From Candidatus Iainarchaeum sp. (GTDB lineage: Archaea > Iainarchaeota > Iainarchaeia > Iainarchaeales > JACQJH01): a DNA stretch of 32,000 nucleotides. A program made the position numbers and the translations under genes. Of the stretch, positions 463 through 31,266 are shown in pieces (the stretch's first letter is position 1; each line of letters begins with the position of its first letter). Under the pieces are notes generated by a model that had not been told where the DNA came from, did not search any database, and saw nothing but the letters and a program-made list of their open reading frames with translations. The DNA is taken from positions 480,001 to 512,000 of the forward strand of contig JACQJH010000002.1 of assembly GCA_016205145.1 (NCBI GenBank). Reading direction: 5' to 3'.

Positions 463-490
463 CCGCCACAACTTGTTATCATGAAAATAA

Positions 491-548
491 AGCAGATGGG
501 TATTGCAACGGCAATACCCGTCGTCGCTCCACGCAGCCGAAACTGCGT
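491..548 (+). repeat. Modular hairpin repeat unit (linker gcagatgg, H1, linker cgtcgtcg-ctcc, H2)
   Basis: H1 is GGGTATTGC aacg GCAATACCC (498-519). H2 is ACGCAG ccgaaa CTGCGT (531-548). The same linkers and H1 recur at 13056-13090 and 30270-30358, and H2 recurs at 6568-6585 and 30363-30380. Confidence 0.85.
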
Positions 549-3192: not shown

Positions 3193-3224
3193 AAAAAACA
3201 ACTCATACTGCAAAAAGATTAAAA

Positions 3225-3280
3225 AGCCGGTTTCGTCCGGCTGGTTCGACGGCAGGTATTGCTTACGCAATACCTGCAAG
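3225..3280 (-). repeat. Modular hairpin repeat unit, inverse orientation (H1 plus H3)
   Basis: On the plus strand: AGCCGG tttcgt CCGGCT (3225-3242) and CAGGTATTGC ttac GCAATACCTG (3253-3276). The reverse complement of 3225-3250 is identical over 26 nt to 13087-13112. Confidence 0.85.
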
Positions 3281-3328
3281 CATTAAAGATTTCGGGGGTT
3301 TGCAGGGGGTGAAACTCCGGCGGAAGCT

Positions 3329-6242: not shown

Positions 6243-6525
6243 ACAATCTTACGAAGGATATTGTATGTATGAATAAAAAACAAGCCCGGCAACCCGCCCC
6301 CAAAACCACTGAAGGCAAAGGTCAGTCAGACCATTCAATACTTATCAAGTCAACTTATTTAAATACCTTTCCGTCCCAAAAAAAAGCTTAAAAAGCGCTT
6401 ATTTTGGGAAAACAAGCCCAAAATTTACTGCTTTTGCAGAAGACCTGTTCGTCAATTTACGAACCATGTACCAGCAGGGACTGGCCTCTCGCACACCCAC
6501 TGACCCCCGAAATCGTTAATACGCC

Positions 6526-6586
6526 TACTCGGCGTATTGCGCTAGCAATACGCCTTGGTTTCGCTCCGCGCAGCCGAAACTGCGCC
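6526..6586 (+). repeat. Modular hairpin repeat unit (linker tactcgg, H1, linker ccttggtttcg-ctcc, H2)
   Basis: GGCGTATTGC gcta GCAATACGCC (6531-6554). GCGCAG ccgaaa CTGCGC (6568-6585) ends 2 nt from the stop codon complement at 6588-6590. Confidence 0.85.
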
Positions 6587-6587
6587 G

Positions 6588-7235: not shown

Positions 7236-7258
7236 AATTGAGTTTGGGCGGCAAAATG

Positions 7259-7266
7259 TTTTAAAA
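7259..7266 (-). promoter_or_regulatory. TATA-like box (TTTTAAAA) for the wHTH gene, leaderless geometry
   Basis: 23 nt separate the box from ATG 7235. Confidence 0.4.
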
Positions 7267-7267
7267 C

Positions 7268-7565
7268 GCAGGGGCTTTCGCCCCTTGCACGCTCCCAAAA
7301 ACAACCTGGCTTACTCGGCTTATTGCAATAGCAACAAGCCTTGGTTTCGGACCCGGCGTGCGAGCAAAAGCGAACGCAGGGATTGCACCCCTTGCAAACC
7401 CCGAAAGCTTTAACGGAATACTCGGCATATTGCGTAGCAATATGCCTTGGTTTCGGCACACGCGATCGAAAACGCGTCCGGACGAAACCGGCTCCGAGCA
7501 AAGCGAGGCGGCGCTATGCGAGCAAAGCGAGCATAGTGCGTCGGCACACCCGCTCGAAAGCGGGT
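7268..7565. repeat. Approx 300-nt array of at least 8 GC-rich hairpin modules
   Basis: H6 7268-7288. tactcgg-H1 7312-7340. H6-like 7376-7395. tactcgg-H1 7419-7446. ACGCG..CGCGT 7460-7477. Truncated H3 7478-7493. GCGCTATGC..GCATAGTGC 7511-7539. ACCCGCT cgaa AGCGGGT 7548-7565. The motif gcgagcaaa(a)gcga occurs three times. Confidence 0.85.
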
Positions 7566-7574
7566 TGGAAAAGC

Positions 7575-7582
7575 AATAAATA
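7575..7582 (+). promoter_or_regulatory. TATA-like box (AATAAATA) for the small membrane protein gene
   Basis: 22 nt upstream of ATG 7605. Confidence 0.4.
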
Positions 7583-7604
7583 CTTTGCCGCACAATTCTT
7601 TTGC

Positions 7605-10884: not shown

Positions 10885-10936
10885 AAAAACCAGAACAAAA
10901 GAATTGCAACAAAAACAGTATTTTAAAGGAATATGT

Positions 10937-11139
10937 AGCCGTCACGCCCGGCTAGTGCGAACTAAGGCTTATCATGGCAAAATCGCGATTTTGCCATGTG
11001 CCCGGAATCTTGGGATTCCGGTGCATGCCGCTGCAATAAGCCGAGTAAGCTTTTTGCAAATAAGTGGCGTTGCAACAGCAACGCCACGCAAGGGGCGTGC
11101 GAGGGGCGAAAGCCCCTGCCTGCGCGCTGTTGCGCGTGA
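10937..11139. repeat. Approx 200-nt nested array of hairpin modules
   Basis: H3-like 10937-10953. Outer stem GGCTTAT (10966-10972) pairs with ATAAGCC (11036-11042) and encloses the 26-nt palindrome H5 (10973-10998) and H4 (11002-11021). Inverse tactcgg at 11041-11047. H1 11064-11087. Inverse H6 11099-11119. Inverse H7 11120-11138. Confidence 0.85.
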
Positions 11140-11183
11140 CAAACCAAACAATAGATGAGACTCGCGAAGGAAGTAGCAAGATT

Positions 11184-11741
11184 TTATTTTTCAACTACAA
11201 GCTTTCTTGACATAAGCAGTTCCGCGATCTTCTGCGGCAGTGGAATGACTTCGCCCTTCGAAAACGGCCCGTATTCCTTCATGTCGGTTCCGACAAAAGC
11301 AGGCACGTCCTTCAGCACGGAAAACAGTTCGCCGGAAGACGCCTCGGCAATGGAAAAGCTTTGGGTTTCACCGTCAAACAGTTCGGCAAGCGACTTCCTG
11401 TGCTCCGCCATCAGTTTGAGCAGTTCAATGAACGTCGCCTTTTCTTCGGAGGACACTTTCTGCAGGGCAACATCCCCGGTCCTTGACGCCACAAGCGCGC
11501 GGTTCAGGAGCTTTTTTTCGCGCAAGGCAAAGATTTCCTGCACCATTTTCTTGAGGTTCGAAAAATTCCTCGCCTTTGAAGTGGAAATGTCGCGCAAAGA
11601 CTTCAGGTATTCCTCTTTTTCGGCTTTCATGAAGGCGTTGAGCTTTTCGAAGAAATCGTCGTCAACTTCGACAAGCTTGGAAGTGTTCTTTTCAAGCCTG
11701 TAAATGCGCCTAAGCTCGTCGTATGAAACGTTCAAAGCCAA
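11184..11741 (-). CDS. gins51: GINS subunit, Gins51 (Gins15)-type
   Basis: 185 aa. N-terminus SYDELRRIYRLEK and C-terminus VLKDVPAFVGTDMKEYGPFSKGEVIPLPQKIAELL match the archaeal Gins51 pattern. Lies directly downstream of priS. Apparent TTG start with a TATA-like box at 11769-11776. Confidence 0.6.
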   Translation of the reverse strand: MALNVSYDELRRIYRLEKNTSKLVEVDDDFFEKLNAFMKAEKEEYLKSLRDISTSKARNFSNLKKMVQEIFALREKKLLNRALVASRTGDVALQKVSSEEKATFIELLKLMAEHRKSLAELFDGETQSFSIAEASSGELFSVLKDVPAFVGTDMKEYGPFSKGEVIPLPQKIAELLMSRKLVVEK

Positions 11742-11789: not shown

Positions 11790-13001
11790 CTAAACAGGCT
11801 TTGCCCTGCCCGAAGCGACCAAAAATATCGCAGCGGACAGCGGAAGTTCCGTTTCAGCCTTGCGCATTTCCGCAAACTTTTCCCCTTTCAGGGAAAATTC
11901 CGGCGAAAAATCCACGAAAACCTTGGCGGGCTCGCGCCCGAAAACAACCGCGTCGGAGAAAGGGTCAAACTGTTTCAGCGCATCCAATGAAACTCTTTTC
12001 GCCTGGAAGCCCGTGCCGCCATGCAAAGTGTCGGGAACGCGCAGGATCTTGCTCTTGTCAAGCGAAGTCTGCCTGTCGACATTGAATGATTCGCACAAAA
12101 CCGTGAAATCGAAAATCTTTGGCCAGAAATCCTTTGTGTTCCTGCCCGAAGGCGAAACGAGGATGCCTTGCGAAAGCTTTTCAAGAAAATTGTCCCTTCC
12201 AGCCAAAAGTTCTTCGGCTTTTTTCTTGCTTATCCCGCCGATTGCCGCGACCTTTTCCGCGTTGCCCGCGCTGAAAAGGCTTTCAATGCCGGACAGGATT
12301 TTTTTCTGCCAGCCGAGGGCAATCTTCTTTTGCGGGCAATGGAATGCCTTGCCGATGCGCACAAATCCAAGTGCAGTGAGGTTGACGGAATGGCCAGTTA
12401 GATAGTCGAGCAGTTCTATGCGCCCGGCATGCGGCAAAGCGTTGATTTCCTCGCCGCGCAAATGCACGTGGTATCCGGCATTGCCCGAGAAGTTCACGTC
12501 AAAGCCTGAAAACCCGAAGTCTTCCTCAAGCGCTTTGACAAGGCGAAAAACCTGGCTTTTGGTTTCGCCAAGGCATTCGTTGCAGAACATCTGCTTTACA
12601 GAGACAGGCGAACCGCAGGACGTGCAGTTCTCCACTTTTCCCGGGCCGCTGGAAAAACATTTCGGGCACAGCCAATAGTCATGGCGCTGCTTGCAGTCTG
12701 TCTGAATGTCGTCGGCGTCGAATTCATAGACGAGGTCGGCTGAAATGAAGCCTTTTGCTTCAATCGGCCTCGCCGCCGGCATTTTGTATTTTGCGCCCGA
12801 ATAGGATACGAACAGCGGCACTTCTGAGCGGAGGAAAGCGTTGAATGCGTCATGGCTTGGAAATGCAAGGTGCCTCTGCGAAATCTTCAGGCCGAAAATG
12901 CCGCAGCCGAACTCCCTTTTCTCCGGTTCGGGCGGCTGGGAAACGAAATTTTTTTCGTAAAACTGCCTGAAATGCTGTTTCAGGAAATCCTCGGCACGCA
13001 T
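11790..13001 (-). CDS. priS: DNA primase small (catalytic) subunit PriS
   Basis: Has KREFG, DLVYEFDADD and FSGNAGYHVHL catalytic motifs, plus a Cys-rich zinc module (CPKC...CTSC). Confidence 0.85.
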   Translation of the reverse strand: MRAEDFLKQHFRQFYEKNFVSQPPEPEKREFGCGIFGLKISQRHLAFPSHDAFNAFLRSEVPLFVSYSGAKYKMPAARPIEAKGFISADLVYEFDADDIQTDCKQRHDYWLCPKCFSSGPGKVENCTSCGSPVSVKQMFCNECLGETKSQVFRLVKALEEDFGFSGFDVNFSGNAGYHVHLRGEEINALPHAGRIELLDYLTGHSVNLTALGFVRIGKAFHCPQKKIALGWQKKILSGIESLFSAGNAEKVAAIGGISKKKAEELLAGRDNFLEKLSQGILVSPSGRNTKDFWPKIFDFTVLCESFNVDRQTSLDKSKILRVPDTLHGGTGFQAKRVSLDALKQFDPFSDAVVFGREPAKVFVDFSPEFSLKGEKFAEMRKAETELPLSAAIFLVASGRAKPV

Positions 13002-13025
13002 GCAAGCATTCTTTGCCTAAAAGTA

Positions 13026-13033
13026 ATAAAAAA
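13026..13033 (-). promoter_or_regulatory. TATA-like box (TTTTATTA) for priS, leaderless geometry
   Basis: 24 nt upstream of ATG 13001. Confidence 0.4.
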
Positions 13034-13055
13034 GGTGCCGGGCACCCAACACAAA

Positions 13056-13112
13056 GCAGATGGGTATTGCAATGGCAATACCCGTCGTCGAACCAGCCGG
13101 ACGAAACCGGCT
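13056..13112 (+). repeat. Modular hairpin repeat unit (linker gcagatgg, H1, linker cgtcgtcg-aacc, H3)
   Basis: GGGTATTGC aatg GCAATACCC (13062-13083). AGCCGG acgaaa CCGGCT (13095-13112) ends immediately before the stop codon complement at 13113-13115. Confidence 0.85.
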
Positions 13113-13328
13113 TCAGCCGCGCTTTGAGCCTATTATGGACGCAGATGAAAGTATTGCCGCCGACAGCACAACAAAGTTCGCTTCGGGCGAGAAACCCAGG
13201 AGCTTTGCCGCAATCGAGATTATCGCAAGGTTTATGCCGAATGAAACCAGTCCGACGACCAGAAGCACGAACGCAGTCAAAACCACAAACGCAAGAGTTC
13301 CGACGCCAAGAGAAGCCCAGAAGCCCAT
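13113..13328 (-). CDS. Small hydrophobic protein (2 predicted TM helices)
   Basis: 71 aa from ATG 13328. SD-like GGGGTGG (13334-13340) lies 5 nt upstream. No recognisable family. Confidence 0.45.
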   Translation of the reverse strand: MGFWASLGVGTLAFVVLTAFVLLVVGLVSFGINLAIISIAAKLLGFSPEANFVVLSAAILSSASIIGSKRG

Positions 13329-14998: not shown

Positions 14999-15724
14999 TC
15001 AGAGTATCATGTGCGCCAGGTAAAAGTTTATTTCGGAGTCGCCGATCGGATACGAGATTTTCATCGGCGAATCGGTCTTGAGCTCAAGCAGGATTTTTTT
15101 GTCCGCGTCGGCCTCGCGCACGATGTTCTGCAAAAAATTCAGGGAATACTTGCTTTGGGTGTCGGCCGAGCTTTTCACGGAAACGCTTTTCCCGTTCGAC
15201 TGGTCGCTGCGCATAGTTCCCTGGCTGCCCTTCGCCTCGATTGAAAGCTTGCCTTTTTTCACGTTTATGACGGCTGCGCTGCCGAACAAGGCAGCGTCTT
15301 TCAGGACTTCCCTGAAAATGCGCGCATTGATCTCGATGTGCGAGTCGAAGCCCACCTGCGGAACCTTCGGCTCTTCCTCGGAAACGTCTATGAGCGGCAG
15401 GCTGAATTTTCTCACCAGGTCGCCTTCAAAGGTCAAAGCCATCTCGTTTTCCGTAAGGTCGAGAACCATCCTGTCGCCGGGCAGTGCGCGCAGCATTATT
15501 TTGGACAGCTCGGAAATGTCGACTCCTGCAAAAGCCGGCTCGACAGCATACCTGTCAAAAATCTTTTTGTCAAGGAAAAGGTCGACCAGCACAATCTGGC
15601 TTGGGTCGATTGCCCTGAACAAAACGCCCTTGTCGGAAAAATGGAAATTGCCCTCCGAAATGAACGATGAAATCGCCTGCACCGCCTTCTGCCACGAATC
15701 AAGCTTTTTGAGTTCAATCGCCAT
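14999..15724 (-). CDS. pcn: DNA polymerase sliding clamp PCNA, paralog A
   Basis: 241 aa. Has AIDPSQIVLVDL, VRKFSLPLIDVS and SKYSLNFLQNIV. The C-terminus FYLAHMIL is a variant of the usual LAPRI ending. Confidence 0.8.
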   Translation of the reverse strand: MAIELKKLDSWQKAVQAISSFISEGNFHFSDKGVLFRAIDPSQIVLVDLFLDKKIFDRYAVEPAFAGVDISELSKIMLRALPGDRMVLDLTENEMALTFEGDLVRKFSLPLIDVSEEEPKVPQVGFDSHIEINARIFREVLKDAALFGSAAVINVKKGKLSIEAKGSQGTMRSDQSNGKSVSVKSSADTQSKYSLNFLQNIVREADADKKILLELKTDSPMKISYPIGDSEINFYLAHMIL

Positions 15725-15784: not shown

Positions 15785-16234
15785 ATGAAATCAGGCGTTT
15801 TCGCGTTTTTTATGCTGATGCTGGCACTTTCGGCATGCGTTGCGCCCGCCCAAAACAAATCAACAGCCGCAGGCGCCTGCCTTGAAAACGGGAAATGCAT
15901 TGACATCAGGATTGCGGATTCCGCTCAGGAACGGGAGCAGGGCTTGATGTTCGAAAAAAGCCTGCCGGAAAGCGGAGGCATGCTGTTCGTTTTCGAAAAC
16001 GAAGGCCCGCACGCTTTCTGGATGAAAAACACGCTGATTCCCCTTGACATCATCTGGCTTGACACAGAAGGCAAAATAGTTTTCATGAGAGAAAACGCTT
16101 TGCCGTGCAGGGAAGAGCCATGTGAAACATTTTTCCCGGACGCAAACGCCAGGTTCGTTCTGGAAACCAATTCAGGCTTTGCGGAAAAAAACGGCCTGGA
16201 AAAAGGGCGGAAAATTTCAATCAGCATTGGCTGA
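15785..16234 (+). CDS. DUF192-family secreted protein with lipobox-like signal peptide
   Basis: Signal MKSGVFAFFMLMLALSAC matches the L-S-A-C lipobox pattern. The core GLMFEKSLPESGGMLFVF...FWMKNTLIPLDIIWLD is typical of DUF192 (COG1430). Confidence 0.6.
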   Translation: MKSGVFAFFMLMLALSACVAPAQNKSTAAGACLENGKCIDIRIADSAQEREQGLMFEKSLPESGGMLFVFENEGPHAFWMKNTLIPLDIIWLDTEGKIVFMRENALPCREEPCETFFPDANARFVLETNSGFAEKNGLEKGRKISISIG

Positions 16235-17041
16235 GCCCTGCGCTTTCAGGCACGCGCCTATCGCGGTTGCGATTCCTGCGTTTTTAGGAAAAACCAGATT
16301 TTTGCTGTAATAGCCGGCAACGGTCTGCATGCGTTTCCTGAACCCTTTGACTTCAGGGGTTTTCCCGACAACGACAATTTCATCCAAGCCTGCCGCGCGG
16401 CTGGCAAAAATTATCGAGACCGCGTTCACTTCAGCAACCATCTTCACGAGCGCTGCCGCAGCGTCCTCTTTTTTGGATGATGAAAGCTTCGCAAAATTCG
16501 AGCCTGTCGCGCCGACCGGAACAACGCCTATGCCTTTGCCCATGATGTCGCCGACTGACAAATCGATTTTTTGCGCTCTGCCTTTTGCCGCAAGCGCCTC
16601 CAATTCAAAAACGTTTTTGGCGCCAAGCAGAAGACTTGCGAGGCCGAGCAGCGTTCCGCCGCCAACTCCGGTGCCGCCAAAATGCCTTGACTTCCCGTTC
16701 CGCATTTCAACTATGCAGGTGCCCGTGCCGAGGCTTGCAACCAAACAGCTCTTTTTGCCCGCAAGGAACGCGCCGCCCAGGCCGATCGCATCGATTTCGG
16801 AAACGTGCCTGACAGGAACGCCGAAAACCTTTTTGCCGTGCAATTGCATTGACCTTCCGCCGGTGACCGCAACCGCCCGTATTTTTTCAAACGGCATGCC
16901 GAGCGATTTCAGGAATTTTTGCATGCCGCGCACGGGCATTGCAGGAAAACTCCACGAACGCACGATTTTTCGTTTGCCGAACAGCACTATGTCAGTCGTC
17001 GAAGCGCCGAAGTCAATTCCCAAGACAAATAGTTTGCCCAT
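16217..17041 (-). CDS. coaW: Type II pantothenate kinase (CoaW / fumble-like)
   Basis: Blocks align with the staphylococcal type II enzyme: GIDFGASTTD, VTGGRS, ASLGTGTC, GGTGVGGGTLLGL, IDLSVGDI, VVVGKT, ATAIGA. Confidence 0.7.
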   Translation of the reverse strand: MGKLFVLGIDFGASTTDIVLFGKRKIVRSWSFPAMPVRGMQKFLKSLGMPFEKIRAVAVTGGRSMQLHGKKVFGVPVRHVSEIDAIGLGGAFLAGKKSCLVASLGTGTCIVEMRNGKSRHFGGTGVGGGTLLGLASLLLGAKNVFELEALAAKGRAQKIDLSVGDIMGKGIGVVPVGATGSNFAKLSSSKKEDAAAALVKMVAEVNAVSIIFASRAAGLDEIVVVGKTPEVKGFRKRMQTVAGYYSKNLVFPKNAGIATAIGACLKAQGSANAD

Positions 17042-17058
17042 TTATCAGTTTCAGCCCT

Positions 17059-18552
17059 TTACGCATTTTCCTGCACGAACTGCACCAGGAGCCTCACGCC
17101 GAATCCCGTCGCCCCGACCCAGGAGTATTGTTTCGGCGCCTTTTCGTTCCACGCAGTTCCCGCAATGTCCAAATGCACCCACGGCGTTTCGCCGACGAAT
17201 TTTGAAAGGAAGCCCGATGAGACGATCATGTCCGCAAACATGCTTTTGCCCAGATTTCTTACATCCGCAACGTCGCTTTTCGTCTGCTCCTTGTATTCGT
17301 CATACAACGGCATTCTCCAGACGCGCTCGAAAATCTCCTGGCCGGTTTCAAACATTTTTTCCGCGAACTTGTCGTTGTTCGAAACCATGCCCGCGACAAA
17401 ATCGTCGAAAGTGCCGATGCAGCTTCCCGTGAGGGTTGCCGCGTCAACAATGAGCTTGGGCTTGATTTTTTCCGACGTGAACGCAAGCGCGTCCGCGAGA
17501 ATAAGCCTTCCCTCGGCGTCAGTGTCAGCCACTTCGACGGTTTTGCCGGAATAAGACTTGATTATGCTGCCCGGCTTGTAGGATTTCGCGCCGACCGCGT
17601 TTTCGACTATCGGCAAAACCGCGACGACGTTCACTTTCGCCTTCAGCTCAGCCAGGGATTTCACCGCCGCAAACATTGTTGCCGCGCCGGCCATGTCAAG
17701 CTTCATGTCCTTCATGTCCCTTGTCTTTATGTCCAAGCCGCCTGTGTCGAATGTTACCCCTTTGCCGACCAGAGCAATTTTGTCCTTTTTTGACTTGTTG
17801 CCGTTGTATTCCAATATGAGCATTCTTGGCGGGAATTCCGCGCCCTTGCCCACTGCAAGAATGAGGTTGAAGCCCTGCTTTGCAAGCTGTTGCGCCGTGA
17901 GTTCCCTGCATGAAACCCTCGCCCTTTTCGCCAAAGCCTTTATCTGCCTTGAAAACGTTTCGGTGTTCTTCTGCCAGGGGCTCTCGTTGACCATGTCGCG
18001 CACAAGGCAGACGTTGCTGCACACTATCGCGGTTTCCTTCACCGCCCTTTGCGCGGCGGCAATGTCCCCGGACTTCAGGATGACGGTAAAGGTTTTCACG
18101 TTGGAGCGCTCCTTCGCATCCTCAAGCAGATATTTGTCGAAACTGTAATGGCCGAGAATGGCGCCTTCAGTGATTGCCTGCAGTTCCTTTCCCTTTCCCT
18201 CGCCGAAGCCCTCAAGCGGGAACGCAACGGACGGATGCTCTATGCCGAGGCTTCTGCATGCCCTTGCAACGATTGCCGAAGCCTTGCGCAGCTTTTCAAG
18301 CGACAGCTCCTTCCTCTTGCCGAGGCCGAGCAAAAAAACGTTTTTTATTTTAGGAAGCGGTGCATTCGGAATGAGAAAGGCCTGGCCGTCCTTTCCTTCA
18401 AAGCCCTTTTTCGGAAGCGCCGCCTTGAACCTTGAAAAAAAGCCGTTGCCGGATTTTTTGAGTTCCTTCAGCTTTTCCTCTGAAACAAAAATTGCAAGCA
18501 GTTCAGTTTCCGCTTTTTCAAAATCCCCGGACTTGACGCGAACCTCGACCAT
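17059..18552 (-). CDS. pepA: Leucyl aminopeptidase, M17 family
   Basis: Has VGKGVTFDTGG, DMKLDMAGAA, VADTDAEGRLILADAL and HLDIAG motifs. SD GGTGG at 18559-18563. Confidence 0.85.
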   Translation of the reverse strand: MVEVRVKSGDFEKAETELLAIFVSEEKLKELKKSGNGFFSRFKAALPKKGFEGKDGQAFLIPNAPLPKIKNVFLLGLGKRKELSLEKLRKASAIVARACRSLGIEHPSVAFPLEGFGEGKGKELQAITEGAILGHYSFDKYLLEDAKERSNVKTFTVILKSGDIAAAQRAVKETAIVCSNVCLVRDMVNESPWQKNTETFSRQIKALAKRARVSCRELTAQQLAKQGFNLILAVGKGAEFPPRMLILEYNGNKSKKDKIALVGKGVTFDTGGLDIKTRDMKDMKLDMAGAATMFAAVKSLAELKAKVNVVAVLPIVENAVGAKSYKPGSIIKSYSGKTVEVADTDAEGRLILADALAFTSEKIKPKLIVDAATLTGSCIGTFDDFVAGMVSNNDKFAEKMFETGQEIFERVWRMPLYDEYKEQTKSDVADVRNLGKSMFADMIVSSGFLSKFVGETPWVHLDIAGTAWNEKAPKQYSWVGATGFGVRLLVQFVQENA

Positions 18553-18601
18553 CCAATACCACCTTCAAAAAAAGAAAGCCGCACATTTTTAAAAGCCAAC
18601 A

Positions 18602-19453
18602 TCATGCGGGAACGGAAACGGCAAGGTTGTCTATGAGCCTTGTCTTTCCGATGCGGCACGCGCAAAGCAAAACAGCCCCGCCTCGGATTTCCTTCAGCTC
18701 CGACAAATCCTTGGCATCGCGCACGGCGAAATACTCGGGCTTTGCCAGCGGCTCTTTCCCAAAAAAGCCTTTTGCAAAACCTTCAACCTCTGCGGGGCTT
18801 TTTTCGCCCGCCAGAATTTTTTCCTTTCCAGCGTTGAGCGCGCGGAACAAAACAGTTGCCGCTTTCCTCTCCCGCGCATCCAGGCGCGCGTTCCTGCTCG
18901 AAAGTGCCAAACCGTCTTTTTCGCGCACTGTCGGGCACACGACAACCGTGACAGGCAGGCTATGCGCGCGGACCATTTCTTTGACAACCAAAAACTGCTG
19001 ATAATCCTTATGGCCGAAGTACGCCTTGCCCGGAGAAACAATTTCGAAAAGCCTTTTGACGACCGCGCACACGCCCGCAAAATGCCCCGGCCGGAATTTT
19101 CCCTCAAGCGTTTCCGCAACGGCGGGCGGCTTTACATCGGCATTGGTGCCGTGCGGATAGATTTCCTTTTCGGTTGGCGCGAAAACAAAATCAACTTTTT
19201 CCTTTTCCAGCAGGCCGAGGTCTCTTTGCAAATCGCGCGGATAATTTTTCAGATCGCTCTTGTCGTTGAACTGCATCGGATTCACAAAAATCGACACTAC
19301 GCAAAAATCGTTTTCCTGCCGGCATTTGCGCACCAATGACAAATGGCCTTCGTGCAAGGCGCCCATTGTGGGAACGAAGCCGACGCTTTTTCCCGGCTCA
19401 TTCAGACGGGCGGCAGCCGCACGCATTTCCTGCGCGGATTTTACGACCTGCAT
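18602..19453 (-). CDS. panC: Pantoate--beta-alanine ligase (pantothenate synthetase)
   Basis: Has FVPTMGALHEGHLSLV plus FVNPMQF and GHKDYQQ motifs. Confidence 0.85.
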   Translation of the reverse strand: MQVVKSAQEMRAAAARLNEPGKSVGFVPTMGALHEGHLSLVRKCRQENDFCVVSIFVNPMQFNDKSDLKNYPRDLQRDLGLLEKEKVDFVFAPTEKEIYPHGTNADVKPPAVAETLEGKFRPGHFAGVCAVVKRLFEIVSPGKAYFGHKDYQQFLVVKEMVRAHSLPVTVVVCPTVREKDGLALSSRNARLDARERKAATVLFRALNAGKEKILAGEKSPAEVEGFAKGFFGKEPLAKPEYFAVRDAKDLSELKEIRGGAVLLCACRIGKTRLIDNLAVSVPA

Positions 19454-19481
19454 GGAATAAAGCTTGCGGAAAAAGGATTTT

Positions 19482-20297
19482 TTAATAGCTGTATTTTTTG
19501 CTTGGAAATTTCCCGCTTTTTACCTGATTGCCGAATTTTTCCGCTGCGCCGGAAATCTTTCCCCCGAGGTTGTCGAACCGCTTCACGAATTTCGGCTGGA
19601 AATCCGGCAGCAGGCCGAGAATGTCGTGCAGCACCAAAACCTGTCCATCACAGTGCCTTCCCGCGCCGATGCCGATTGTCGGAATGGCAAGGCAGTTAGT
19701 GATTTTTTTTGCGAGGCCGGACGGAACGCATTCCAGAACAAGCGCGAAACAGCCTTCCCTTTCAAGGCAGAGCGCGTCCTGCATAATTTTTTCCGCTTCT
19801 TCGGCATTCCTGCCTTTCACGGAAAAGTTTTCCGCTGTCTGCGGAGTCAGGCCGAGATGGCCGATGACCGGAATGCCGGCATCGCGGATGGCTTTTGCTA
19901 TGCCATCGGAAAAGCCTTCAATTTTCACGCAATGGCAGCCTGCTTCCGAGAATTTTTTCGCGTTCTCGCCTGCAAGGTTTGAGTTCGTGAAAGAGCCGAA
20001 CGGCATGTCCCCGATCACAAAGGATTTTTTGCACGCCCTTGCGACAGCCGCGGAATGCCGGAGCATTGTTTCCATTGAAACCGTCGAGGTTTTCGGCTCG
20101 CCGTAAACCACGTTGTTCAGGGAATCTCCGACAAGCAGGGCGTCAACCTTCGCGTCGACAAGCCGTGCAAAGGCATGGTCGTAGCAGGCAAGCACGGAGA
20201 TTTTTTCGCCGGACTTCTTCATTTCGGCAAACTTTTCGGAAATGTGCATGAAAAGCTTGTGCTGGAACAATTTGAAAAAGCTATTTGTCCCGCTCAC
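19482..20297 (-). CDS. panB: 3-methyl-2-oxobutanoate hydroxymethyltransferase
   Basis: Has ISVLACYD...LLVGDSLNNVVYG...DMPFGS...VKIEG...GHLGLTPQ. GTG 20297 overlaps the PCNA-B stop (GTGA). The alternative start is ATG 20249. Confidence 0.85.
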   Translation of the reverse strand: MSGTNSFFKLFQHKLFMHISEKFAEMKKSGEKISVLACYDHAFARLVDAKVDALLVGDSLNNVVYGEPKTSTVSMETMLRHSAAVARACKKSFVIGDMPFGSFTNSNLAGENAKKFSEAGCHCVKIEGFSDGIAKAIRDAGIPVIGHLGLTPQTAENFSVKGRNAEEAEKIMQDALCLEREGCFALVLECVPSGLAKKITNCLAIPTIGIGAGRHCDGQVLVLHDILGLLPDFQPKFVKRFDNLGGKISGAAEKFGNQVKSGKFPSKKYSY

Positions 20298-21040
20298 TCT
20301 GATTCTATGCGCGGCGCAAGGAAATAGGTTATGTCGGCCTTGCCGACCTTGTAGTTGACCTGGATGGGCGCGTTTGTTTTGAGGAAAACCTTGACTTCGG
20401 TGTCAGAGGAAGCGGTTTTGAGCATGTCGGAAAGGTAGTCCAACGGGAACATGCTTTTAGCCTCGTCTTTCACTTTCATTTCGGTTATCGCCTTGTCGTC
20501 CTTCTGGGTTTCGCTGTTCAGTTCGCCCTTGCTTGAATGCGCCCTGACAAAAAACTTTTTGTTCTCGATGCCCAACGAAACGTGCGTTGAAATGAGCGCG
20601 GAATCCTTGAGCGCGTCCTGCAGGACCGAAGCCTTCATTGAAAGTTCCGCGTCGAAGTCTATGCGCGGACTCGGCAATTCGGAAGCGGAAATGTCTATCA
20701 AAGGCATGGAAAATTTTCTCACGGAAGAGCCCTTGAACGTGACGCTCAGATAGTTCTTGTCGTCCTCCAATGCCAGGTGCAGTTCGTCGCCGGCCTTCGA
20801 CCTGGACATTATCTGGCCCAGGTAATCGAGGTCCAGGCCGAGCTTGGTTTTGCCGTCCAAATCGAATTTTTTGAAGGAATCCTTTTTGAGCGAGAAGTCG
20901 ACCATTGAAATCTGGCTTGGGTCGGTCGCCCTCAATGACAAACCATTGGCGTCGAAGATGAATTCGGCCTCGTCGATCAGGACCGCGATTGAGTCGATGC
21001 ATTTCTTGAAATCGTCGGCCTTTTCGAGCACTACGTCCAT
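20294..21040 (-). CDS. pcn: DNA polymerase sliding clamp PCNA, paralog B
   Basis: 248 aa. Has ATDPSQISMVDF, VRKFSMPLIDIS, FPLDYLSDMLK and a canonical YFLAPRIE C-terminus. Confidence 0.8.
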   Translation of the reverse strand: MDVVLEKADDFKKCIDSIAVLIDEAEFIFDANGLSLRATDPSQISMVDFSLKKDSFKKFDLDGKTKLGLDLDYLGQIMSRSKAGDELHLALEDDKNYLSVTFKGSSVRKFSMPLIDISASELPSPRIDFDAELSMKASVLQDALKDSALISTHVSLGIENKKFFVRAHSSKGELNSETQKDDKAITEMKVKDEAKSMFPLDYLSDMLKTASSDTEVKVFLKTNAPIQVNYKVGKADITYFLAPRIESE

Positions 21041-21070: not shown

Positions 21071-21116
21071 AAAGAACTTAACCTCGTGGCAAAAATCTAC
21101 CCCGCAGGCACATGCA

Positions 21117-21222
21117 TACTCGGCGTGCCGCACAGCGGCACGCCTTGGCTCCGAACCAGCCGCAGTTGCGAAGCCAGCGCCATGCAATGCATGGTGCGCG
21201 TACCAGCCGGACGAGACGGCTG
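21117..21222 (+). repeat. Hairpin module array (tactcgg-H1 variant, H8, H3 variant)
   Basis: GGCGTGCCGC aca GCGGCACGCC (21122-21144). CCATGCA a TGCATGG (21180-21194). CAGCCG gacgaga CGGCTG (21204-21222). Lies 14 nt from the stop at 21237. Confidence 0.8.
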
Positions 21223-21236
21223 CGGACGGAAGCGGC

Positions 21237-22010
21237 TCAGCAAATCAGGTCGTAGTCCGCCGGCAGCCTTCCGGTCGAAGCGAGGCCGAGCAGGTTGTCG
21301 AAAATCCAGAGCTTTGCGCAGCCGAGCACAGGGATCTGGAAGATTGCCTTGCCCTGCACTTGAGAGGCGTTGACCGGATAGAGCGTGATGCATGCCTGCT
21401 GTGAAACGCCGTTCACGATTTTGCCGCAGTCCGCGTCAAGAGTGTAATTCTGCTCGCTGTCGCCTTTTGTCAGGAGAAACGTTCCATCATTTGCAGCGAG
21501 TTTTGCCACGACGCGGTGGATTATCGGCCTGCCTGACGGGACAGCCGTGTAAACGACAATCGACCCGGTCTTTTCAACCGGAATTGTTTTGCCGTCCTTG
21601 AAAACGATTTTTTTCGCCTGCGGAATGCCATTCTCCATTTCAAACCTCAGCGACGCGAAATCGGAAAAAGGCGTGTTCGAAAGGCTTTGGCTTGGCATGG
21701 AAACTTCCGTTGCCTTGATGCCGTCCGGTCCGGCGCCGGCAAGCATTATGATGTCGCCGCGATGGTACAACGGTTTCATGGAGCCGGAAACGACTATCAT
21801 GAAAGGCGATTGCGTCTGCAGGATCATGCCCGCAATAGTGTATGCGAGCCAAGCGAAAACGAATGCGGAAACGATGTAAACTATTGTCGAGATTGCCGCG
21901 TTGTTTTTCGGGTTGACTGCCGGCATGACAAAGAGGTCGACGTAGTGGAACGGATCGAGCCATTTCAGCTTCTGCAGGATTGCATGGAATGGGCTTTGCT
22001 TGGCCGGCAT
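21237..22010 (-). CDS. Signal peptidase I, archaeal/Sec11 type (S26B)
   Basis: N-terminal TM helix, then SGSMKPLYHRGDII (Ser box), IIHRVV (His box) and TKGDSEQNYTLD. Confidence 0.75.
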   Translation of the reverse strand: MPAKQSPFHAILQKLKWLDPFHYVDLFVMPAVNPKNNAAISTIVYIVSAFVFAWLAYTIAGMILQTQSPFMIVVSGSMKPLYHRGDIIMLAGAGPDGIKATEVSMPSQSLSNTPFSDFASLRFEMENGIPQAKKIVFKDGKTIPVEKTGSIVVYTAVPSGRPIIHRVVAKLAANDGTFLLTKGDSEQNYTLDADCGKIVNGVSQQACITLYPVNASQVQGKAIFQIPVLGCAKLWIFDNLLGLASTGRLPADYDLIC

Positions 22011-26261: not shown

Positions 26262-26296
26262 TTCTTTCACATTGCCTGAAATTTAATACAAAAAAA

Positions 26297-26407
26297 GCAG
26301 ACGGGTATCGGGCAAGCGGAATCGTCCAACCAATCACGCGCAACAGCGCGCAGCTCCATGCGAATGAAATGAGCATGGGGCGTCGGACCAGCCGGACGAA
26401 ATCGGCT
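26297..26407 (+). repeat. Hairpin module array (gcagacgg linker, H7, H8, H3)
   Basis: CGCGC aaca GCGCG (26337-26350). CCATGC..GCATGG (26356-26378). AGCCGG acgaaa TCGGCT (26390-26407) overlaps the lonB stop complement by 1 nt. An A7 run lies at 26290-26296. Confidence 0.8.
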
Positions 26408-29413: not shown

Positions 29414-29448
29414 ACAAAAAAAGTTTCACTTCAAGCGGAAGGCAATTG

Positions 29449-30159
29449 CTATTTCAAATTGAAGGTTTGCCCCGGCGCGAGAATGACCGGCTTTGTTTTC
29501 AGGATGCTTTTCTCTATTTTCTGCCTGAACTCCTGCGGGTCCTGCTTTATGGTCTCGAAAGTGTTGTAGTGCATCGGAATCACATAATCCGGCTTCATTG
29601 TCTTGGTCGCGCGCACAGCATCGACGCAGTCCATTGTCTCGTTGCCGCCGATGGGCAGCAATGCGACGTTCGCCTTTATCTGCGAGAAGGTGTCCAAAAG
29701 CTGGGTGTCGCCGGCATGGTAAACCGTTGTTGTGTCGTCCGAAATCAGGAAACCCATCGGATAGAATGACTGGGGGTGATGCGCGTGCACGGCTTCGATG
29801 TGAAGGCCCCTGCAATTGATTTTTTTCGCAGTGTCAATCGAGTGCATCATCGGCTTCTGGAGCGAAAGCTGGTTCAGGATGGAATCGTGCGCCACAACGC
29901 ACGCGTTCGTCGACCTTGAGAGCCTTTCCACCATCTTCGGCTCGAAATGGTCGAAATGCTCGTGCGTTATGAGTATGACATCGGCCTTTTTCACGTCTTT
30001 TTCGGCGACCGGGCACTTTACGATGCGCTTGAACTCGCTGTTATGCGCGCAGACAAAAAAAGGGTCCACAAGGACGGTCTTGCCGGAAAAGTTGAGTTTG
30101 AAAAAAGCGTGGCCCAAAAACTGTACTTTCAGCGCCAAACAAACCACACCATTAATCAT
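29449..30159 (-). CDS. Metal-dependent hydrolase, MBL fold (UPF0173-like)
   Basis: Has VQFLGHAFFKL...VLVDPF...ILITHEHFDHF...YHAGDT. The start may be a downstream TTG/GTG (30138-30147) because the TATA-like box at 30173-30182 is only 13 nt from ATG 30159. Confidence 0.65.
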   Translation of the reverse strand: MINGVVCLALKVQFLGHAFFKLNFSGKTVLVDPFFVCAHNSEFKRIVKCPVAEKDVKKADVILITHEHFDHFEPKMVERLSRSTNACVVAHDSILNQLSLQKPMMHSIDTAKKINCRGLHIEAVHAHHPQSFYPMGFLISDDTTTVYHAGDTQLLDTFSQIKANVALLPIGGNETMDCVDAVRATKTMKPDYVIPMHYNTFETIKQDPQEFRQKIEKSILKTKPVILAPGQTFNLK

Positions 30160-30209
30160 ATTGAACCGAGAGGAATATTAATACCTACTTTTCCTGCAGG
30201 CAAAAAAAA

Positions 30210-30397
30210 GCAGATGGTTACTGGGCGAATGCGACGCACCGGAACCCCAAGATTCTGGACACGTCCAAAGCAGATGGGTATTGCATCAGCAATGCCCCAG
30301 AATCCTAAGATTCTGGGCACGTCGCAAAATCCAAGATTTTGCGAAGTACCCGTCGTCGCTCCACGCAGCCGAAACTGCGTCCGGACGGAATCACCGG
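30210..30397 (+). repeat. Approx 190-nt composite hairpin array with an apparently interrupted H1-H2 unit
   Basis: gcagatgg occurs twice (30210-30217, 30270-30277). H4-like 30239-30258. H1 30276-30297. H4 30296-30317. H5 30323-30343. ccgtcgtcg linker (30349-30358 region). H2 30363-30380. H3 variant 30381-30397. Confidence 0.85.
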
Positions 30398-30407
30398 CTT
30401 GGAAAAC

Positions 30408-30415
30408 TATTTATA
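30408..30415 (+). promoter_or_regulatory. TATA-like box (TATTTATA)
   Basis: 35 nt upstream of GTG 30451. Confidence 0.35.
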
Positions 30416-30450
30416 CAATAAATGCAGTTGAATTATCTGGGTGGATTGCA

Positions 30451-31266
30451 GTGGAATGTGCTGTTTTGAGCCGGCGGAAACTCTGCCTTGCAGTATTGTT
30501 GCTTGCCGTCTTTTTCTCCGGGCTTGCGTTTGCCCAGTCCTATGAAATCCAAAAGCACGAAATAGAGATTACGCTCGGCGAAAACGGCGAAACCTCTGTT
30601 GCCGAAAGGTATTACCTGGACTTTCCGAACAGCCTCCAGCTCGAGCGGTTCAAGCAGAAAAGCGAGGAACTCGGCGTCGACCTCCAGAAATGGAGGGAAT
30701 TCGACCCGAACATCAGGGTTTTCATCGGCGGCGAGGAGGATGTGAGAAGCGGGGTGCTCAGCTTTGACGGCGCGAAAAAGTTTTTGCAGCTGAGCTACGG
30801 CCTTGAAACCCCGGTCGTTTCAAAGACAAGCGAAACCGGCAGGATAACGACGTTCGAACTCAAAAAAAGCGCGCTCAAGGACTTCCGGACAGGGGACACG
30901 ACTGTCATTCCGGCAGGAACAAGCATAAAAATCAATTTCCCGAAGAATTCGGAAATAATCCAGCCGGTCCAGCCTGCCGCAAAAACAAGCGGCGATTCAA
31001 TCCAATGGACTGGCTATACGCGCTCGAACGCAGTCACGTTGTCATACAGGGTTTTCAAGGAGATTGCGCCGCAGTTCGAGCTGTCCGGCCTGCTCAAAGG
31101 CGCATTCGCAAGCAACGTCTTTCCGCTTGTAGTGCTTTTTGTCATCATCGTGAGCGCGATCGCTTATTCAAGGCGCAGGGCAATCGCGGACCGGATCGAG
31201 GAATACGTTGTAGAGCACTCCGACTTGGAAGAGGAAACCTTCGAACAGGAAGAGGAAAACCAGTAG
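30451..31266 (+). CDS. Hypothetical secreted protein with C-terminal TM anchor and acidic tail
   Basis: Has signal-like RRKLCLAVLLLAVFFSGLAFAQS, the C-terminal helix NVFPLVVLFVIIVSAIAY and an acidic tail. The start is GTG 30451 or TTG 30466. The listed ORF from 29947 is antisense to the hydrolase and crosses the repeat array. Confidence 0.55.
   Translation: MECAVLSRRKLCLAVLLLAVFFSGLAFAQSYEIQKHEIEITLGENGETSVAERYYLDFPNSLQLERFKQKSEELGVDLQKWREFDPNIRVFIGGEEDVRSGVLSFDGAKKFLQLSYGLETPVVSKTSETGRITTFELKKSALKDFRTGDTTVIPAGTSIKINFPKNSEIIQPVQPAAKTSGDSIQWTGYTRSNAVTLSYRVFKEIAPQFELSGLLKGAFASNVFPLVVLFVIIVSAIAYSRRRAIADRIEEYVVEHSDLEEETFEQEEENQ

Follow-up and report, generated by a model that had tools for sequence, protein, structure and literature searches.

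Modular hairpin units in the intergenic regions

The window (the whole 32,000-nt stretch of DNA that was analysed) holds at least nine intergenic arrays with modular hairpin units, located outside the called coding regions (Table 1). Perfect hairpins with stems of at least 9 bp are strongly enriched: the window has 10, whereas 30 first-order Markov resamples gave an expectation of 1.0 and never more than 3. The basic unit is composed of a 5' motif (aaaGCAGAT or TACTC), a palindrome, a linker and a G+C-rich hairpin with a CGAAA-type loop. The palindrome, 9-12 bp long, varies in its outer part but keeps a conserved TATTGC/GCAATA core; the linker is short and ends in TCG plus NNCC. The neighbours of the units are housekeeping genes (PCNA, primase, aIF2-alpha, Lon and others) that carry their own TATA-like boxes. 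Successive units share the same orientation in the arrays at 7268-7566 and 30207-30397.

The sequence expected for the junction of an intact unit, gcaatACCCgtcgtcg, was confirmed at 511-526 and 13075-13090. The unit at 487-548 has a 7-nt repeat, TATCATG, on both of its sides, possibly by chance.

Table 1. Location and composition of the hairpin units, arrays and component parts
Feature	Position	Strand	Description
U1, truncated or degenerate unit	30207..30266	+	aaagcagatgg; H4-type module GCACCGGAACC ccaa GATTCTGG; acacgtcc
Composite unit A	30267..30380	+	aaagcagat 5' motif, split H1 palindrome with nested H4-H5 module, linker gtcgtcg-ctcc, H2 hairpin
Outer stem P1, 5' strand	30273..30281	+	GATGGGTAT; pairs with 30346-30354
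Outer stem P1, 3' strand	30346..30354	+	GTACCCGTC; distal H1 3' arm and linker GTC; includes the right-hand ACCC
Helix P2, apical H1 remnant	30282..30291	+	TGC atca GCA; from folding
Nested two-hairpin module of A	30293..30346	+	54 nt, GCAA/TGCCCC...GCGAAG/TACCC; B and D have a homologous module of 53 nt
Tail of unit A and cluster end	30355..30397	+	rest of linker gtcg ctcc; H2 ACGCAG ccgaaa CTGCGT (30363-30380); small hairpin CCGG acggaatca CCGG (30381-30397)
Composite unit B	10937..11048	-	ttactc GGCTTATTGC agcg GCA, 53-nt module, ATAAGCC ttagttcg cact AGCCGG gcgtga CGGCT
Composite D			in two related strains (L131, L136); same H4-H5 module at the same place as in A and B
Intact H1-H2 unit	487..548	+	H1 is a 12-bp stem, GATGGGTATTGC/GCAATACCCGTC
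Intact H1-H3 unit	13051..13114	+	confirmed by Logan unitig L134
Intact H1-H3 unit	3224..3286	-	outer stem covaries, GCAGGTATTGC/GCAATACCTGC
Intact H1'-type unit	6524..6586	+	tactc GGCGTATTGC gcta GCAATACGCC ttggtttcg ctcc GCGCAG ccgaaa CTGCGC
Long array	7268..7566	+	two intact H1' units (7310-, 7417-) and at least 6 more hairpin modules
Further array	21095..21237	+	H1'-type unit with a stem of entirely different sequence, GGCGTGCCGC aca GCGGCACGCC
Unit with gcagacggg 5' motif	26292..26407	+	other internal hairpins, then CGTCG gacc and H3

A two-hairpin module is nested in one arm of unit A

The cluster at 30207-30397 contains the incomplete unit U1 followed by composite unit A, and its tail adjoins the TATA box of the downstream gene. 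The same pairing of an H2-type hairpin with CCGG..CCGG as in this tail occurs at 7459-7484. The upstream parts described in the original prediction were recovered, namely gcagatgg (30210-30217), a degenerate H4 (30239-30258) and acacgtcc (30259-30266). U1 also holds a non-palindromic stretch similar to the 5' part of the unit at 26292, and it lacks H5, the distal arm and H2. A 35-nt repeat (30231-30265 and 30289-30323) is 80% identical between U1 and unit A. We dropped tandem duplication as the origin of U1/U2, as TRF detected no array and their similarity reaches only about 65-80%, in parts of their length.

The interrupted junction of unit A reads as had been predicted (30289-30358): gcaat GCCC, a 50-nt block (30298-30347) and ACCCgtcgtcg, after which the unit continues with ctcc (30359-30362) and H2 (30363-30380). 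The block is made up of H4 (CCCAGAATC/ctaa/GATTCTGGG), cacg, H5 (TCGCAAAATC/caa/GATTTTGCGA) and agt. When aligned with seven intact units (MAFFT), the extra 53-54 nt appeared as one clean indel, so the block is indeed an additional self-contained two-hairpin module within an otherwise normal H1-H2 unit. H4 of unit A (30296-30304/30309-30317) is lengthened by TGCCC:GGGCA, and H5 spans 30322-30331/30335-30344.

Composite units B and D carry the extra 53-54 nt in the same MAFFT columns as unit A, where it separates GCA(A) from (A)TAxxCC in the 3' arm. In all three, the 3' arm of an H1-type palindrome is interrupted after its first 3-4 nt. In B, the module (plus-strand 10973-11025) reads TGCACCGGAATC ccaa GATTCCGGGCA CATGGCAAAAT cgcg ATTTTGCCATG. 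The composites belong to two subfamilies, gcagat/gtcgtcg (A) and tactc/ttagttcg (B and D). The module has the same position in both, and their homology is limited to about 10 nt on one side. Four contexts preserve the 5' end of the module, which reads TGCACC in B and D, GCACC in U1 and TGCCCC in A. By our own count on the alignments, H4 is 81-89% identical across contexts, compared with only roughly 50-60% for the host units. The left flank of the module is always TTGC-N4-GCA(A), in the three copies known, two of which are related. Since B and D derive one from the other, the case for independent insertion at a single site depends on the comparison of A with B/D.

We considered whether the composite could be a chimeric join of two repeat-bearing loci in a short-read metagenome-assembled genome. 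Logan unitigs back unit A leftward to 30335 (L001) and rightward from 30351 (L128, L129), and the 15 nt that join H5 to ACCC (30336-30350) lie between them; moreover, the 30 nt after 30351 are repeated at 519-548. However, unit A reads 'gaagtaccc' where the intact copies of the window read 'caataccc', and this difference (aagtaccc versus aataccc) excludes a simple chimera with those copies. The distal arm and the 5' arm of A are perfect complements, and the same architecture is present in B, the right junction of which is backed by Logan unitig L137, and in D, which was found in two independent ENA assemblies. An assembly artefact is therefore extremely improbable.

The RCCC repeat consists of stem bases

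The original prediction took the RCCC repeat for the target-site duplication that transposition would leave. Spelled out, the 50-nt block would be a miniature transposable element that entered an H1-H2 unit by the staggered cuts of a cut-and-paste or replicative transposase, with duplication of a 4-nt RCCC target. Some of this stands. GCCC and ACCC do border the block, the block is palindromic and self-contained, and the locus is clearly the product of an insertion relative to its relatives. The duplication does not stand. The homologous modules of B (GCA/.../ATAAGCC) and D (GCA/.../ATACGCC) have no flanking repeat. The left GCCC of A is the module's own 5' end: B, D and U1 have GCAC at the aligned position, and the GCCC of A pairs with GGGC(A) of the lengthened H4. 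The right-hand ACCC pairs with GGGT of the outer stem. As both copies are stem bases, in two different helices, their similarity carries no statistical weight. The copies also differ in their first letter (G versus A), and the parse GCAA/54 nt/TACCC fits unit A without any duplication or substitution. The ends of the module are not mutually inverted (TGCACC.../...GCCATG in B and D, TGCCCC.../...GCGAAG in A), and symmetry is seen only within each hairpin.

Block copies that lack a duplication and CCC residues that serve as stem bases were the two outcomes named beforehand as contradicting a transposition, and both were observed. A target-site duplication is thus not supported, and we regard the transposition that would have made it as very improbable. 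Rather than an inserted element with a duplicated target at its borders, the block is the H4-H5 two-hairpin module of a modular intergenic hairpin family. What looked like the footprint of a transposon is a coincidence of structure and should not be taken as evidence for transposition that generates target-site duplications.

Composite units fold into a four-way junction with compensated stems

The folding z-scores of A, B and D ranged from -4.3 to -7.6. For all three, a four-way junction was both the minimum free energy and the centroid structure, with DNA and RNA parameters alike, because the split arm still pairs across the module. Outer stem P1 of unit A was present in both types of structure under both parameter sets, with pair probabilities of 0.97-0.997. 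The pairing of GGG to the right-hand CCC had P = 0.997 (RNA) and 0.967 (DNA), and the junction was favored over a fold with H1 restored through GCCC by 6 kcal/mol (RNA) and 0.9 kcal/mol (DNA). The junctions of B and D contain no unpaired nucleotides.

Stems were kept paired through double substitutions. Between the super-units of B and D, 3 of the 44 pairs changed on both sides yet remained paired, and one pair was broken; unpaired columns differed at 14 of 64 positions. One of the compensated pairs (T-A to G-C) lies in the outer stem that spans the module. Sliding the partners by 1-3 columns, as a control on the B/D comparison, yielded zero compensatory pairs. With two sequences the shuffle control has a floor of about 0.12 (58/500), and the significance of the covariation is our own estimate, about 0.2 compensated pairs expected versus 3 observed.

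Such features might be expected of structured RNA. The units would then be RNA genes or cis-elements, the composite a four-way-junction RNA, the H1-only unit its minimal form, and the stems would be selected for RNA function. This is in line with very stable, conserved folds, fully paired in the junctions of B and D, with compensatory changes that extend across the module, and with the GNRA-like CGAAA loops. A T-G pair (U-G wobble) is conserved on the sense strand of the 12-bp H1 stem, and the arrays at 487, 3224 and 10937 lie just 3' of co-oriented genes. However, A-C mismatches are also found on the sense strand, in the stem at 7316 and in H4 of D. Both kinds of orientation relative to flanking genes occur: the units at 6524 and 13051 are antisense to both neighbouring genes, and the arrays at 7268 and 30207 lie between divergent promoters. 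No promoter-like element was apparent before the units. The window had no match to Rfam 15 at the gathering score, and the two composite regions gave only chance-level matches at E up to 10. Units are also present, absent or fully replaced among strains with 99% identical neighbouring proteins (see below). We consider a structured RNA quite unlikely. The occurrence of units in both orientations and between divergent promoters fits selfish DNA better than cis-acting RNA.

ARAGORN detected zero tRNA or tmRNA genes, and on the Rfam and ARAGORN results we rejected a tRNA-like or known RNA identity. Strand-specific G-T versus A-C mismatches in the stems were also tried as a discriminator between DNA and RNA; this was dropped, as the cases were few and pointed both ways.

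Units and arrays turn over between strains

Repeated rearrangement had been suspected at the 30207-30397 locus, and related contigs show that the locus has been rearranged. The whole cluster is absent from L126 and L135 (MBL 91% identical) and from L127 (87%). The cluster's last hairpin is a small one whose 3' arm aligns with sequence in the empty alleles.

Between GINS and aIF2-alpha, the window has array B; L131 has another array at this place, and the spacers of L130 and L136 are free of arrays. The aIF2-alpha of L130 and L131 is 99% identical to that of the window, and that of L136 was retrieved solely through its membership in the same 90%-identity cluster. The array boundary here cannot be described as a clean insertion, since the spacer itself was replaced too. 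At the locus orthologous to the array at 7268-7566, L131 and L136 carry composite D instead. The super-unit of roughly 150 nt shared by B and D is therefore at a non-orthologous locus in these strains, and it has sharp ends at the two unrelated loci. After the MBL stop codon, a unit is present in L125 and none in the window. The L125 unit is bordered by a 45-nt direct repeat, with the 3' arm of its last hairpin inside the second copy. Overall, units and whole arrays are gained, lost and moved among intergenic regions on a strain time-scale.

Unit parts also show short similarities to nearby unique DNA, at 13141-13157 and 414-425.

Database searches for the units and for an enzyme

Genome contigs (596 Gb) were scanned with the 16-mer AAGCAGAYGGGTATYG, which is too short for this collection and returned only chance matches in unrelated bacteria. 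A pattern of 21 specified bases had one unrelated chance match in metagenome contigs. Viral contigs yielded no match to either module version, to H2 or to the H1 and H1' units. Protein search with the concatenated six-frame translation of the units gave nothing at E up to 10, and an exact-protein look-up of the ORF at 34-462 gave no match. No transposase, RAYT, tnpA, tnpB, integrase or other enzyme was found within the 32-kb window.

Comparison with known hairpin repeats and mobile elements

REP sequences of Proteobacteria are extragenic palindromes of about 22-26 nt with 8-11-bp stems and 3-5-nt loops, and REP dimers nested in other palindromes are known from H. neapolitanus (CGTC-1), T. roseum (GTAG-23) and A. 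variabilis (GTAG-15) (PMC3733652). The units of the window resemble REPs and BIMEs as short extragenic palindromes that are clustered in intergenic regions and heterogeneous in stem, loop and tail. Counted within the 32-kb window, they agree with the generic description of REPs as extragenic palindromes of 20-40 nt in many copies. The nested REP dimers (PMC3733652) are the closest published parallel to the two-hairpin module inside H1, but here the module is in the 3' arm and not in the centre, which gives the four-way junction. CGTC REP families have 8-9-bp stems that start with A-T pairs, and a CCA tail (PMC3733652), whereas the stems here start with G-C and the CGTCG is 3' of H1 and 4 nt (NNCC) 5' of the second hairpin. 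Given this tag position, we rejected membership in the CGTC REPs. Unlike GTAG and CGTC REPs in general, the units carry GCAGAT or TACTC, and no tag, directly 5' of the stem. In each unit a conserved linker joins two different hairpins in a fixed combination, array units are direct and not alternating as in BIMEs, and the host is an archaeon.

For REPINs, compensatory changes and a 'clover' configuration have been described (PMC3116915), and it was stated that REPINs were not detected in archaea (bioRxiv 10.1101/2021.07.10.451892). The likeness to the REPIN-RAYT system lies in non-autonomous hairpin repeats with compensatory stem changes, in an alternative fold like the 'clover' proposed as the enzyme-recognised form, and in a presumed single-stranded DNA (ssDNA) mechanism without target duplication. 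However, two inverted REPs in one long hairpin were not seen. The pairs 7310/7417 and U1/U2 are direct, and H4 and H5 are not mutual inverted copies.

The IS200/IS605 family is common in archaea. Its elements and their miniature derivatives, such as the PATEs of haloarchaea, have end hairpins and insert as ssDNA by a short specific sequence, with no target duplication. The module likewise has hairpins at both ends, no duplication and the left flank TTGC-N4-GCA(A) (three copies, two of them related). It differs in being 53-54 nt long with nearly no sequence beyond the hairpin feet. With essentially nothing between these feet and the module ends, there is no room for an IS608-type arrangement of guide and cleavage site. 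There is also no tnpA or tnpB nearby (32-kb window).

Like the units, pneumococcal BOX elements, ERIC and RUP are small, non-coding, intergenic, strongly folding and modular, and their presence is polymorphic between strains. The boxA-boxB-boxC order is comparable to the 5' motif, palindrome, linker and hairpin of the units. A MITE has, by definition, terminal inverted repeats and target-site duplications, and neither feature was found at unit A, B or D or at the boundary of the cluster. MITEs and small modular repeats are reviewed in PMC3184786 and PMC10969869.

Integron attC sites are recognised in folded single-stranded form, conserve structure over sequence and recombine at a fixed position of one arm. 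The nesting point also has a fixed position in one hairpin arm, but the units lie between housekeeping genes, with no gene cassettes, no integrase (in the window) and no R/L box pattern.

Possible origin of the composite units

We favor, with some reserve, a selfish hairpin family similar to REPs and REPINs, in which modules nest at a structure-defined site and copying proceeds via a folded single strand. A family of this kind would behave like selfish DNA of the REP/REPIN type. The strand that is copied would most plausibly be ssDNA at the replication fork, and the acting agent would be a putative structure-specific enzyme of the HUH/Y1 kind, provided in trans. The proposed ssDNA mechanism would account for nesting at a structure-defined position within another palindrome with no target duplication. 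The polarity could be either insertion into H1 or precise loss from a composite. Several observations argue against this origin. The 32-kb window has no transposase or other such enzyme, and both the REP tags (GTAG/CGTC directly 5' of the stem) and the inverted doublets of REPINs are absent. Only three composites are known, of which B and D are related. The 45-nt direct repeat in L125 is not predicted by a duplication-free ssDNA mechanism, and the GINS/aIF2-alpha array boundary is unclean.

The L125 repeat, with a hairpin arm inside its second copy, would be easier to understand if the composites had originated without an enzyme. In this scenario, hairpins and composites would arise and spread by replication errors at palindromes (fold-back or template switching) together with gene conversion or illegitimate recombination between arrays, and the shared TTGC-N4-GCA would have guided the template switch that brought a copy of the module into H1. 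The alignment of the cluster's last hairpin arm with empty-allele sequence, the short similarities of unit parts to unique DNA, and array boundaries that are replacements and not clean insertions are in agreement with this. In contrast, the B/D super-unit is sharp-ended at two unrelated loci, and the module has the same position in two subfamilies with so little homology. The single-stranded motifs (GCAGAT, TACTC and TCG-NNCC) and the TATTGC/GCAATA core are conserved as well, which suggests recognition by a protein. We therefore regard an enzyme-free origin as unlikely.

The favored selfish family could be taken further. A DPANN archaeon might harbor active, REPIN-like but architecturally distinct mobile hairpin modules that fold as single strands and home to the 3' arm of another palindrome, building the four-way-junction composites, with arrays reshuffled among promoter-proximal intergenic regions within the species. 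We put this forward tentatively and hold it to be rather doubtful. Target-primed or fold-back copying as an alternative to homing is hinted at by the 45-nt repeat that flanks the L125 unit. Small palindromic systems (REP, BIME and REPIN) are regarded as bacterial, and the host here is a DPANN archaeon, represented by a Candidatus Diapherotrites metagenome-assembled genome. If the modules do home, this would be the first such archaeal system and would imply a new trans-acting structure-specific enzyme.

The units form a fast-changing REP-like hairpin system, for which we found no literature description in archaea. A DPANN genome of roughly the 1-Mb class is expected to be streamlined, yet this one has several hundred bases of units per intergenic region. 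If mobile as folded single strands, the units would serve as a small natural model for the study of insertion into hairpins that is structure-directed and leaves no duplication, and as a strain-typing marker for these uncultivated archaea. They would also explain why assemblies fragment at intergenic regions, since every related contig that we retrieved ends in or beside arrays.

Hairpin arrays and unit architecture

Hairpin modules fill at least nine intergenic regions of the window. The hairpins are not the product of chance: with a minimum stem of 9 bp, ten perfect ones were found against 1.0 expected, and all ten lie inside the intergenic arrays. An intact unit consists, in order, of aaaGCAGAT, the palindrome GGGTATTGC-N4-GCAATACCC (H1), GTCGTCG, ctcc or aacc, and a hairpin (H2 or H3) with a CGAAA-type loop. 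Alignment revealed two subfamilies with a common architecture: each has a linker with TCG at its end, then NNCC, then a G+C-rich hairpin. The H1 core TATTGC/GCAATA is conserved across units, and the H1 outer stem varies in step with its partner (GGG/CCC, GCAGG/CCTGC, GGCG/CGCC, GGCA/TGCC, GGCT/AGCC). A tactc-type unit in the 21095-21237 array has a wholly different stem sequence (GGCGTGCCGC aca GCGGCACGCC) between flanks of the usual type (ttggctccg aacc, then AGCCGG..CGGCT hairpins), so the flanks are more conserved than the stems.

Hairpin features and their positions (window coordinates unless a contig is named)
Feature	Position	Sequence or setting
Hairpin array	487-548	
Hairpin array	3224-3330	
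Hairpin array	6518-6590	
Hairpin array	7268-7566	
Hairpin array	10925-11150	
Hairpin array	13051-13125	
Hairpin array	21095-21237	
Hairpin array	26292-26407	
Hairpin array	30207-30397	
Subfamily 1		gcagat-H1-gtcgtcg
Subfamily 2		tactc-H1'-ttggtttcg or -ttagttcg
Composite A	30267-30380 (plus)	outer stem GATGGGTAT/GTACCCGTC
H4 of A		CCCAGAATC/GATTCTGGG, perfect hairpin
H5 of A		TCGCAAAATC/GATTTTGCGA, perfect hairpin
Composite B	10937-11048 (minus)	outer stem GGCTTAT/ATAAGCC
Composite D		outer stem GGCGTAT/ATACGCC
H4 module in unit U1	30236-30262	H4 module alone
Super-unit, window	10925-11150 (minus)	GINS/aIF2-alpha spacer
Super-unit, L131	L131:3515-3745	TrmB-like/membrane-protein spacer
Super-unit, L136	L136:5080-5300	TrmB-like/membrane-protein spacer

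A small membrane-protein ORF that is apparently unannotated (~13131-13322, minus strand) contains, in its 3' end, GCAGATGaaaGTATTGC (13141-13157). This stretch is similar to the 5' start of the H1 unit 85 nt upstream (GCAGATGgGTATTGC, 13056-13070) and may represent a relic, a target similarity or the source of the motif. The stretch TGCAACGACAAT (414-425, inside the gene at 34-462) matches the H1 apex TGCAACGGCAAT (504-515, 90 nt downstream) at 11 of 12 positions, and the 7-nt TATCATG stands on both sides of the 487-548 unit (477-483 and 564-570); chance may account for both.

A two-hairpin module nested at one position

Composite A has an intact-type 5' half, followed by GCAAT GCCC, a 50-nt stretch with two perfect hairpins (H4 and H5), and ACCC GTCGTCG ctcc H2. 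On reading 30000-30600, 400-700 and 12950-13250, all strings and coordinates of the original prediction proved correct. In a MAFFT alignment with seven intact units, the extra segment is a single clean indel. Logan unitigs from independent runs reproduce A on the left to 30335 and on the right from 30351, with the 15 nt between uncovered; we consider an assembly artefact extremely unlikely.

The module recurs. Composite B begins with ttactc GGCTTATTGC agcg GCA, continues with the module (TGCACCGGAATC ccaa GATTCCGGGCA CATGGCAAAAT cgcg ATTTTGCCATG) and ends with ATAAGCC ttagttcg cact AGCCGG..CGGCT. Composite D, with a module almost identical to that of B, was found in two ENA assemblies that are independent of each other and represent closely related strains: L131, whose aIF2-alpha (P0121, also that of contig L130) is 99% identical to the window's, and L136, whose aIF2-alpha falls into the same 90%-identity cluster. 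The alignment columns occupied by the module are the same in all three composites: they directly follow TTGC-N4-GCA(A) and lie 3-4 nt inside the palindrome's 3' arm. The H5-type hairpin of B (CATGGCAAAATCGCGATTTTGCCATG, 10973-10998) is a perfect 26-nt palindrome, loop included, and Logan unitigs break within such hairpins (L001 ends at 30335, L137 starts at 10989). Almost every contig of this lineage terminates within an array or next to one, and thus the repeats fragment assemblies.

The flanking RCCC pair consists of stem bases

The GCCC and ACCC on either side of the 50-nt block had been read as a target-site duplication left by transposition. The module junctions of B and D lack any repeat. 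In the alignment, B, D and U1 have GCAC at the module 5' end where A has its left GCCC, which thus arrived with the module. Composite A can be parsed as GCAA / 54 nt / TACCC, with zero duplication and zero substitution relative to the intact arm GCAATACCC. A, B and D all fold as a four-way junction (MFE and centroid, with DNA or RNA parameters), in which the outer stem is joined by a 3-bp apical remnant, H4 extended by TGC(CC):(GG)GCA, and H5. In the predicted fold of B and D, the four helices abut with 0 unpaired junction nucleotides. The GGG of A has a pairing probability of 0.997 (RNA) or 0.967 (DNA) with the right-hand CCC, against at most 0.01 with the left-hand one.

Since B and D carry no repeat and the CCC runs are stem bases, the RCCC pair is very probably not a target-site duplication. 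An extra nested module and a rearranged locus remain of the earlier reading, and the transposition footprint falls away; classical transposition with such a duplication is very unlikely.

Compensatory change in the super-unit

B and D each lie within a homologous super-unit of ~150 nt (hairpin Hx, spacer, composite, hairpin H3'), and the two are ~90% identical. Among its 44 base pairs, three are changed on both sides yet still paired (two in Hx and one in the outer stem spanning the 53-nt module) and one is broken; 14 of 64 unpaired columns differ. No compensated pairs between the B and D super-units were obtained after sliding the partners by 1-3 columns, and by our own estimate ~0.2 would be expected by chance against the three observed. 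With only two sequences, the covariation shuffle control has a floor of ~0.12 (58/500). Uncompensated intermediates are present in the Hx of L136. Between A and B, H4 shows one compensated G-C to A-T pair.

Units that act as functional structured RNA would also be in keeping with the fold, with the CGAAA loops and with compensation in stems. However, unit orientation is mixed, units lie between divergent promoters, arrays are replaced at strain level and Rfam gave zero matches, and we regard this explanation as quite unlikely.

Gain, loss and movement between strains

The 30207-30397 cluster lies between divergent genes for an MBL hydrolase (minus strand, start near 30138-30159) and a membrane protein (start 30451), with TATA-like boxes on both sides. 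In two independent contigs of a relative whose MBL is 91% identical (L126 from JGI, L135 from ENA), the two promoters are ~15 nt apart (caaaaaaaagcccgtttgcaaaactatttatac), and the cluster is also absent from L127, a single contig from a relative at 87%. All 190 nt of the cluster are missing in 3/3 relatives' contigs. Since the outgroup is empty as well, parsimony favours gain of the cluster on the lineage of the window.

Between GINS and aIF2-alpha, the window has the B array. L131 has another array in this spacer, with the tail of a unit resembling that at 7417-7490, and neither L136 nor L130 has any; in L130 the upstream gene is different. L131 and L136 have the super-unit at a position orthologous to 7231-7604 of the window, which contains another array there; both locus ends are conserved. 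In the reverse direction, L131 has the tail of the 7417-7490 unit beside its aIF2-alpha promoter. The 3' end of each of these units abuts the TATA box of the co-oriented downstream gene.

In L125 (ENA ERZ4903072; MBL 91% identical), an H1'-type unit directly follows the MBL stop codon, at a site without a unit in the window (29414-29448). A 45-nt direct repeat with copies at 718-762 and 825-869 (43/45 identical) borders the unit on both sides and takes in the last 27 nt of the MBL gene. The 3' arm of the unit's last hairpin (CCGCCGGG) lies inside the second copy. Such a long duplication is not what a duplication-free single-stranded DNA mechanism predicts. Enzyme-free template switching with gene conversion could account for it, as well as for the overlap of terminal hairpin arms with target sequence and for unclean array boundaries. 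The super-unit ends are sharp and the flanking motifs conserved, which speaks against this route; we hold it to be unlikely but not far-fetched.

Comparison with known repeat families

All conclusions draw on the 32-kb window and ~30 kb of related short contigs. By kind, we classify the hairpin family as small palindromic interspersed repeats. On balance, we lean towards a REP/REPIN-like family of selfish DNA. Its units are modular, strongly folding intergenic palindromes with conserved single-stranded motifs beside variable, compensated stems. They occur in both orientations relative to genes with rapid presence/absence polymorphism, and the module nests, with no duplication of the target, at a single position defined by structure. 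A putative structure-specific enzyme, acting in trans, would copy the units as folded single strands, and the composite would be a nested four-way-junction form that is itself propagated (B and D).

REP dimers have been reported to be regularly nested in other palindromes (PMC3733652). For REPINs, compensatory changes have been described, together with a 'clover' configuration in which they are proposed to be recognised, in an IS200-like manner (PMC3116915). The family works like REP/BIME/REPIN elements, but it lacks the GTAG or CGTC tag of REP superfamilies at the stem, the inverted doublet of REPINs and the alternating orientation of BIMEs. A mechanism like that of IS200/IS605 would be compatible with the observations. 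A MITE identity was rejected, there being neither terminal inverted repeats nor a target-site duplication. REPINs were stated to be undetected in archaea (bioRxiv 10.1101/2021.07.10.451892). Our literature search, of incomplete coverage, found no account of such repeats in Diapherotrites or other DPANN, which is absence of evidence only. The proposed footprint is explained away. The hairpin system beneath it is unusual, both for an archaeon and for a genome that is reduced.

Gene content of the window

The genes of the window are archaeal and include two PCNA genes, PriS, PriL, GINS, aIF2-alpha, Lon, an EndoQ-like protein and an S-layer protein. The MBL hydrolase (29449-30159) has 229 aa, not 236, in the NCBI annotation and most homologues, so translation probably begins with the TTG at 30138. 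On the minus strand, 11184-11741 encodes GINS (Gins51_C in relatives), and this is the real gene rather than the overlapping plus-strand ORF at 11155-11703. Contiguous pantothenate/CoA genes (PanB, PanC and a Fumble-type pantothenate kinase) lie at 16217-20297 beside an M17 leucyl aminopeptidase; this set of a reduced DPANN genome is flanked by the two PCNA genes (14999-15724 and 20294-21040). At 3326-3395, directly downstream of the minus-strand S-layer gene, a ~50-nt purine-rich tract (gaaagaaaaaataaaagaaaaagaaaagaaaaaaaagaaaggaaaaaggg, plus strand) is followed by a GGGAAAC/GTTTCCC hairpin. For that gene, the tract reads as a long T/C-rich run, and the region may be a terminator.
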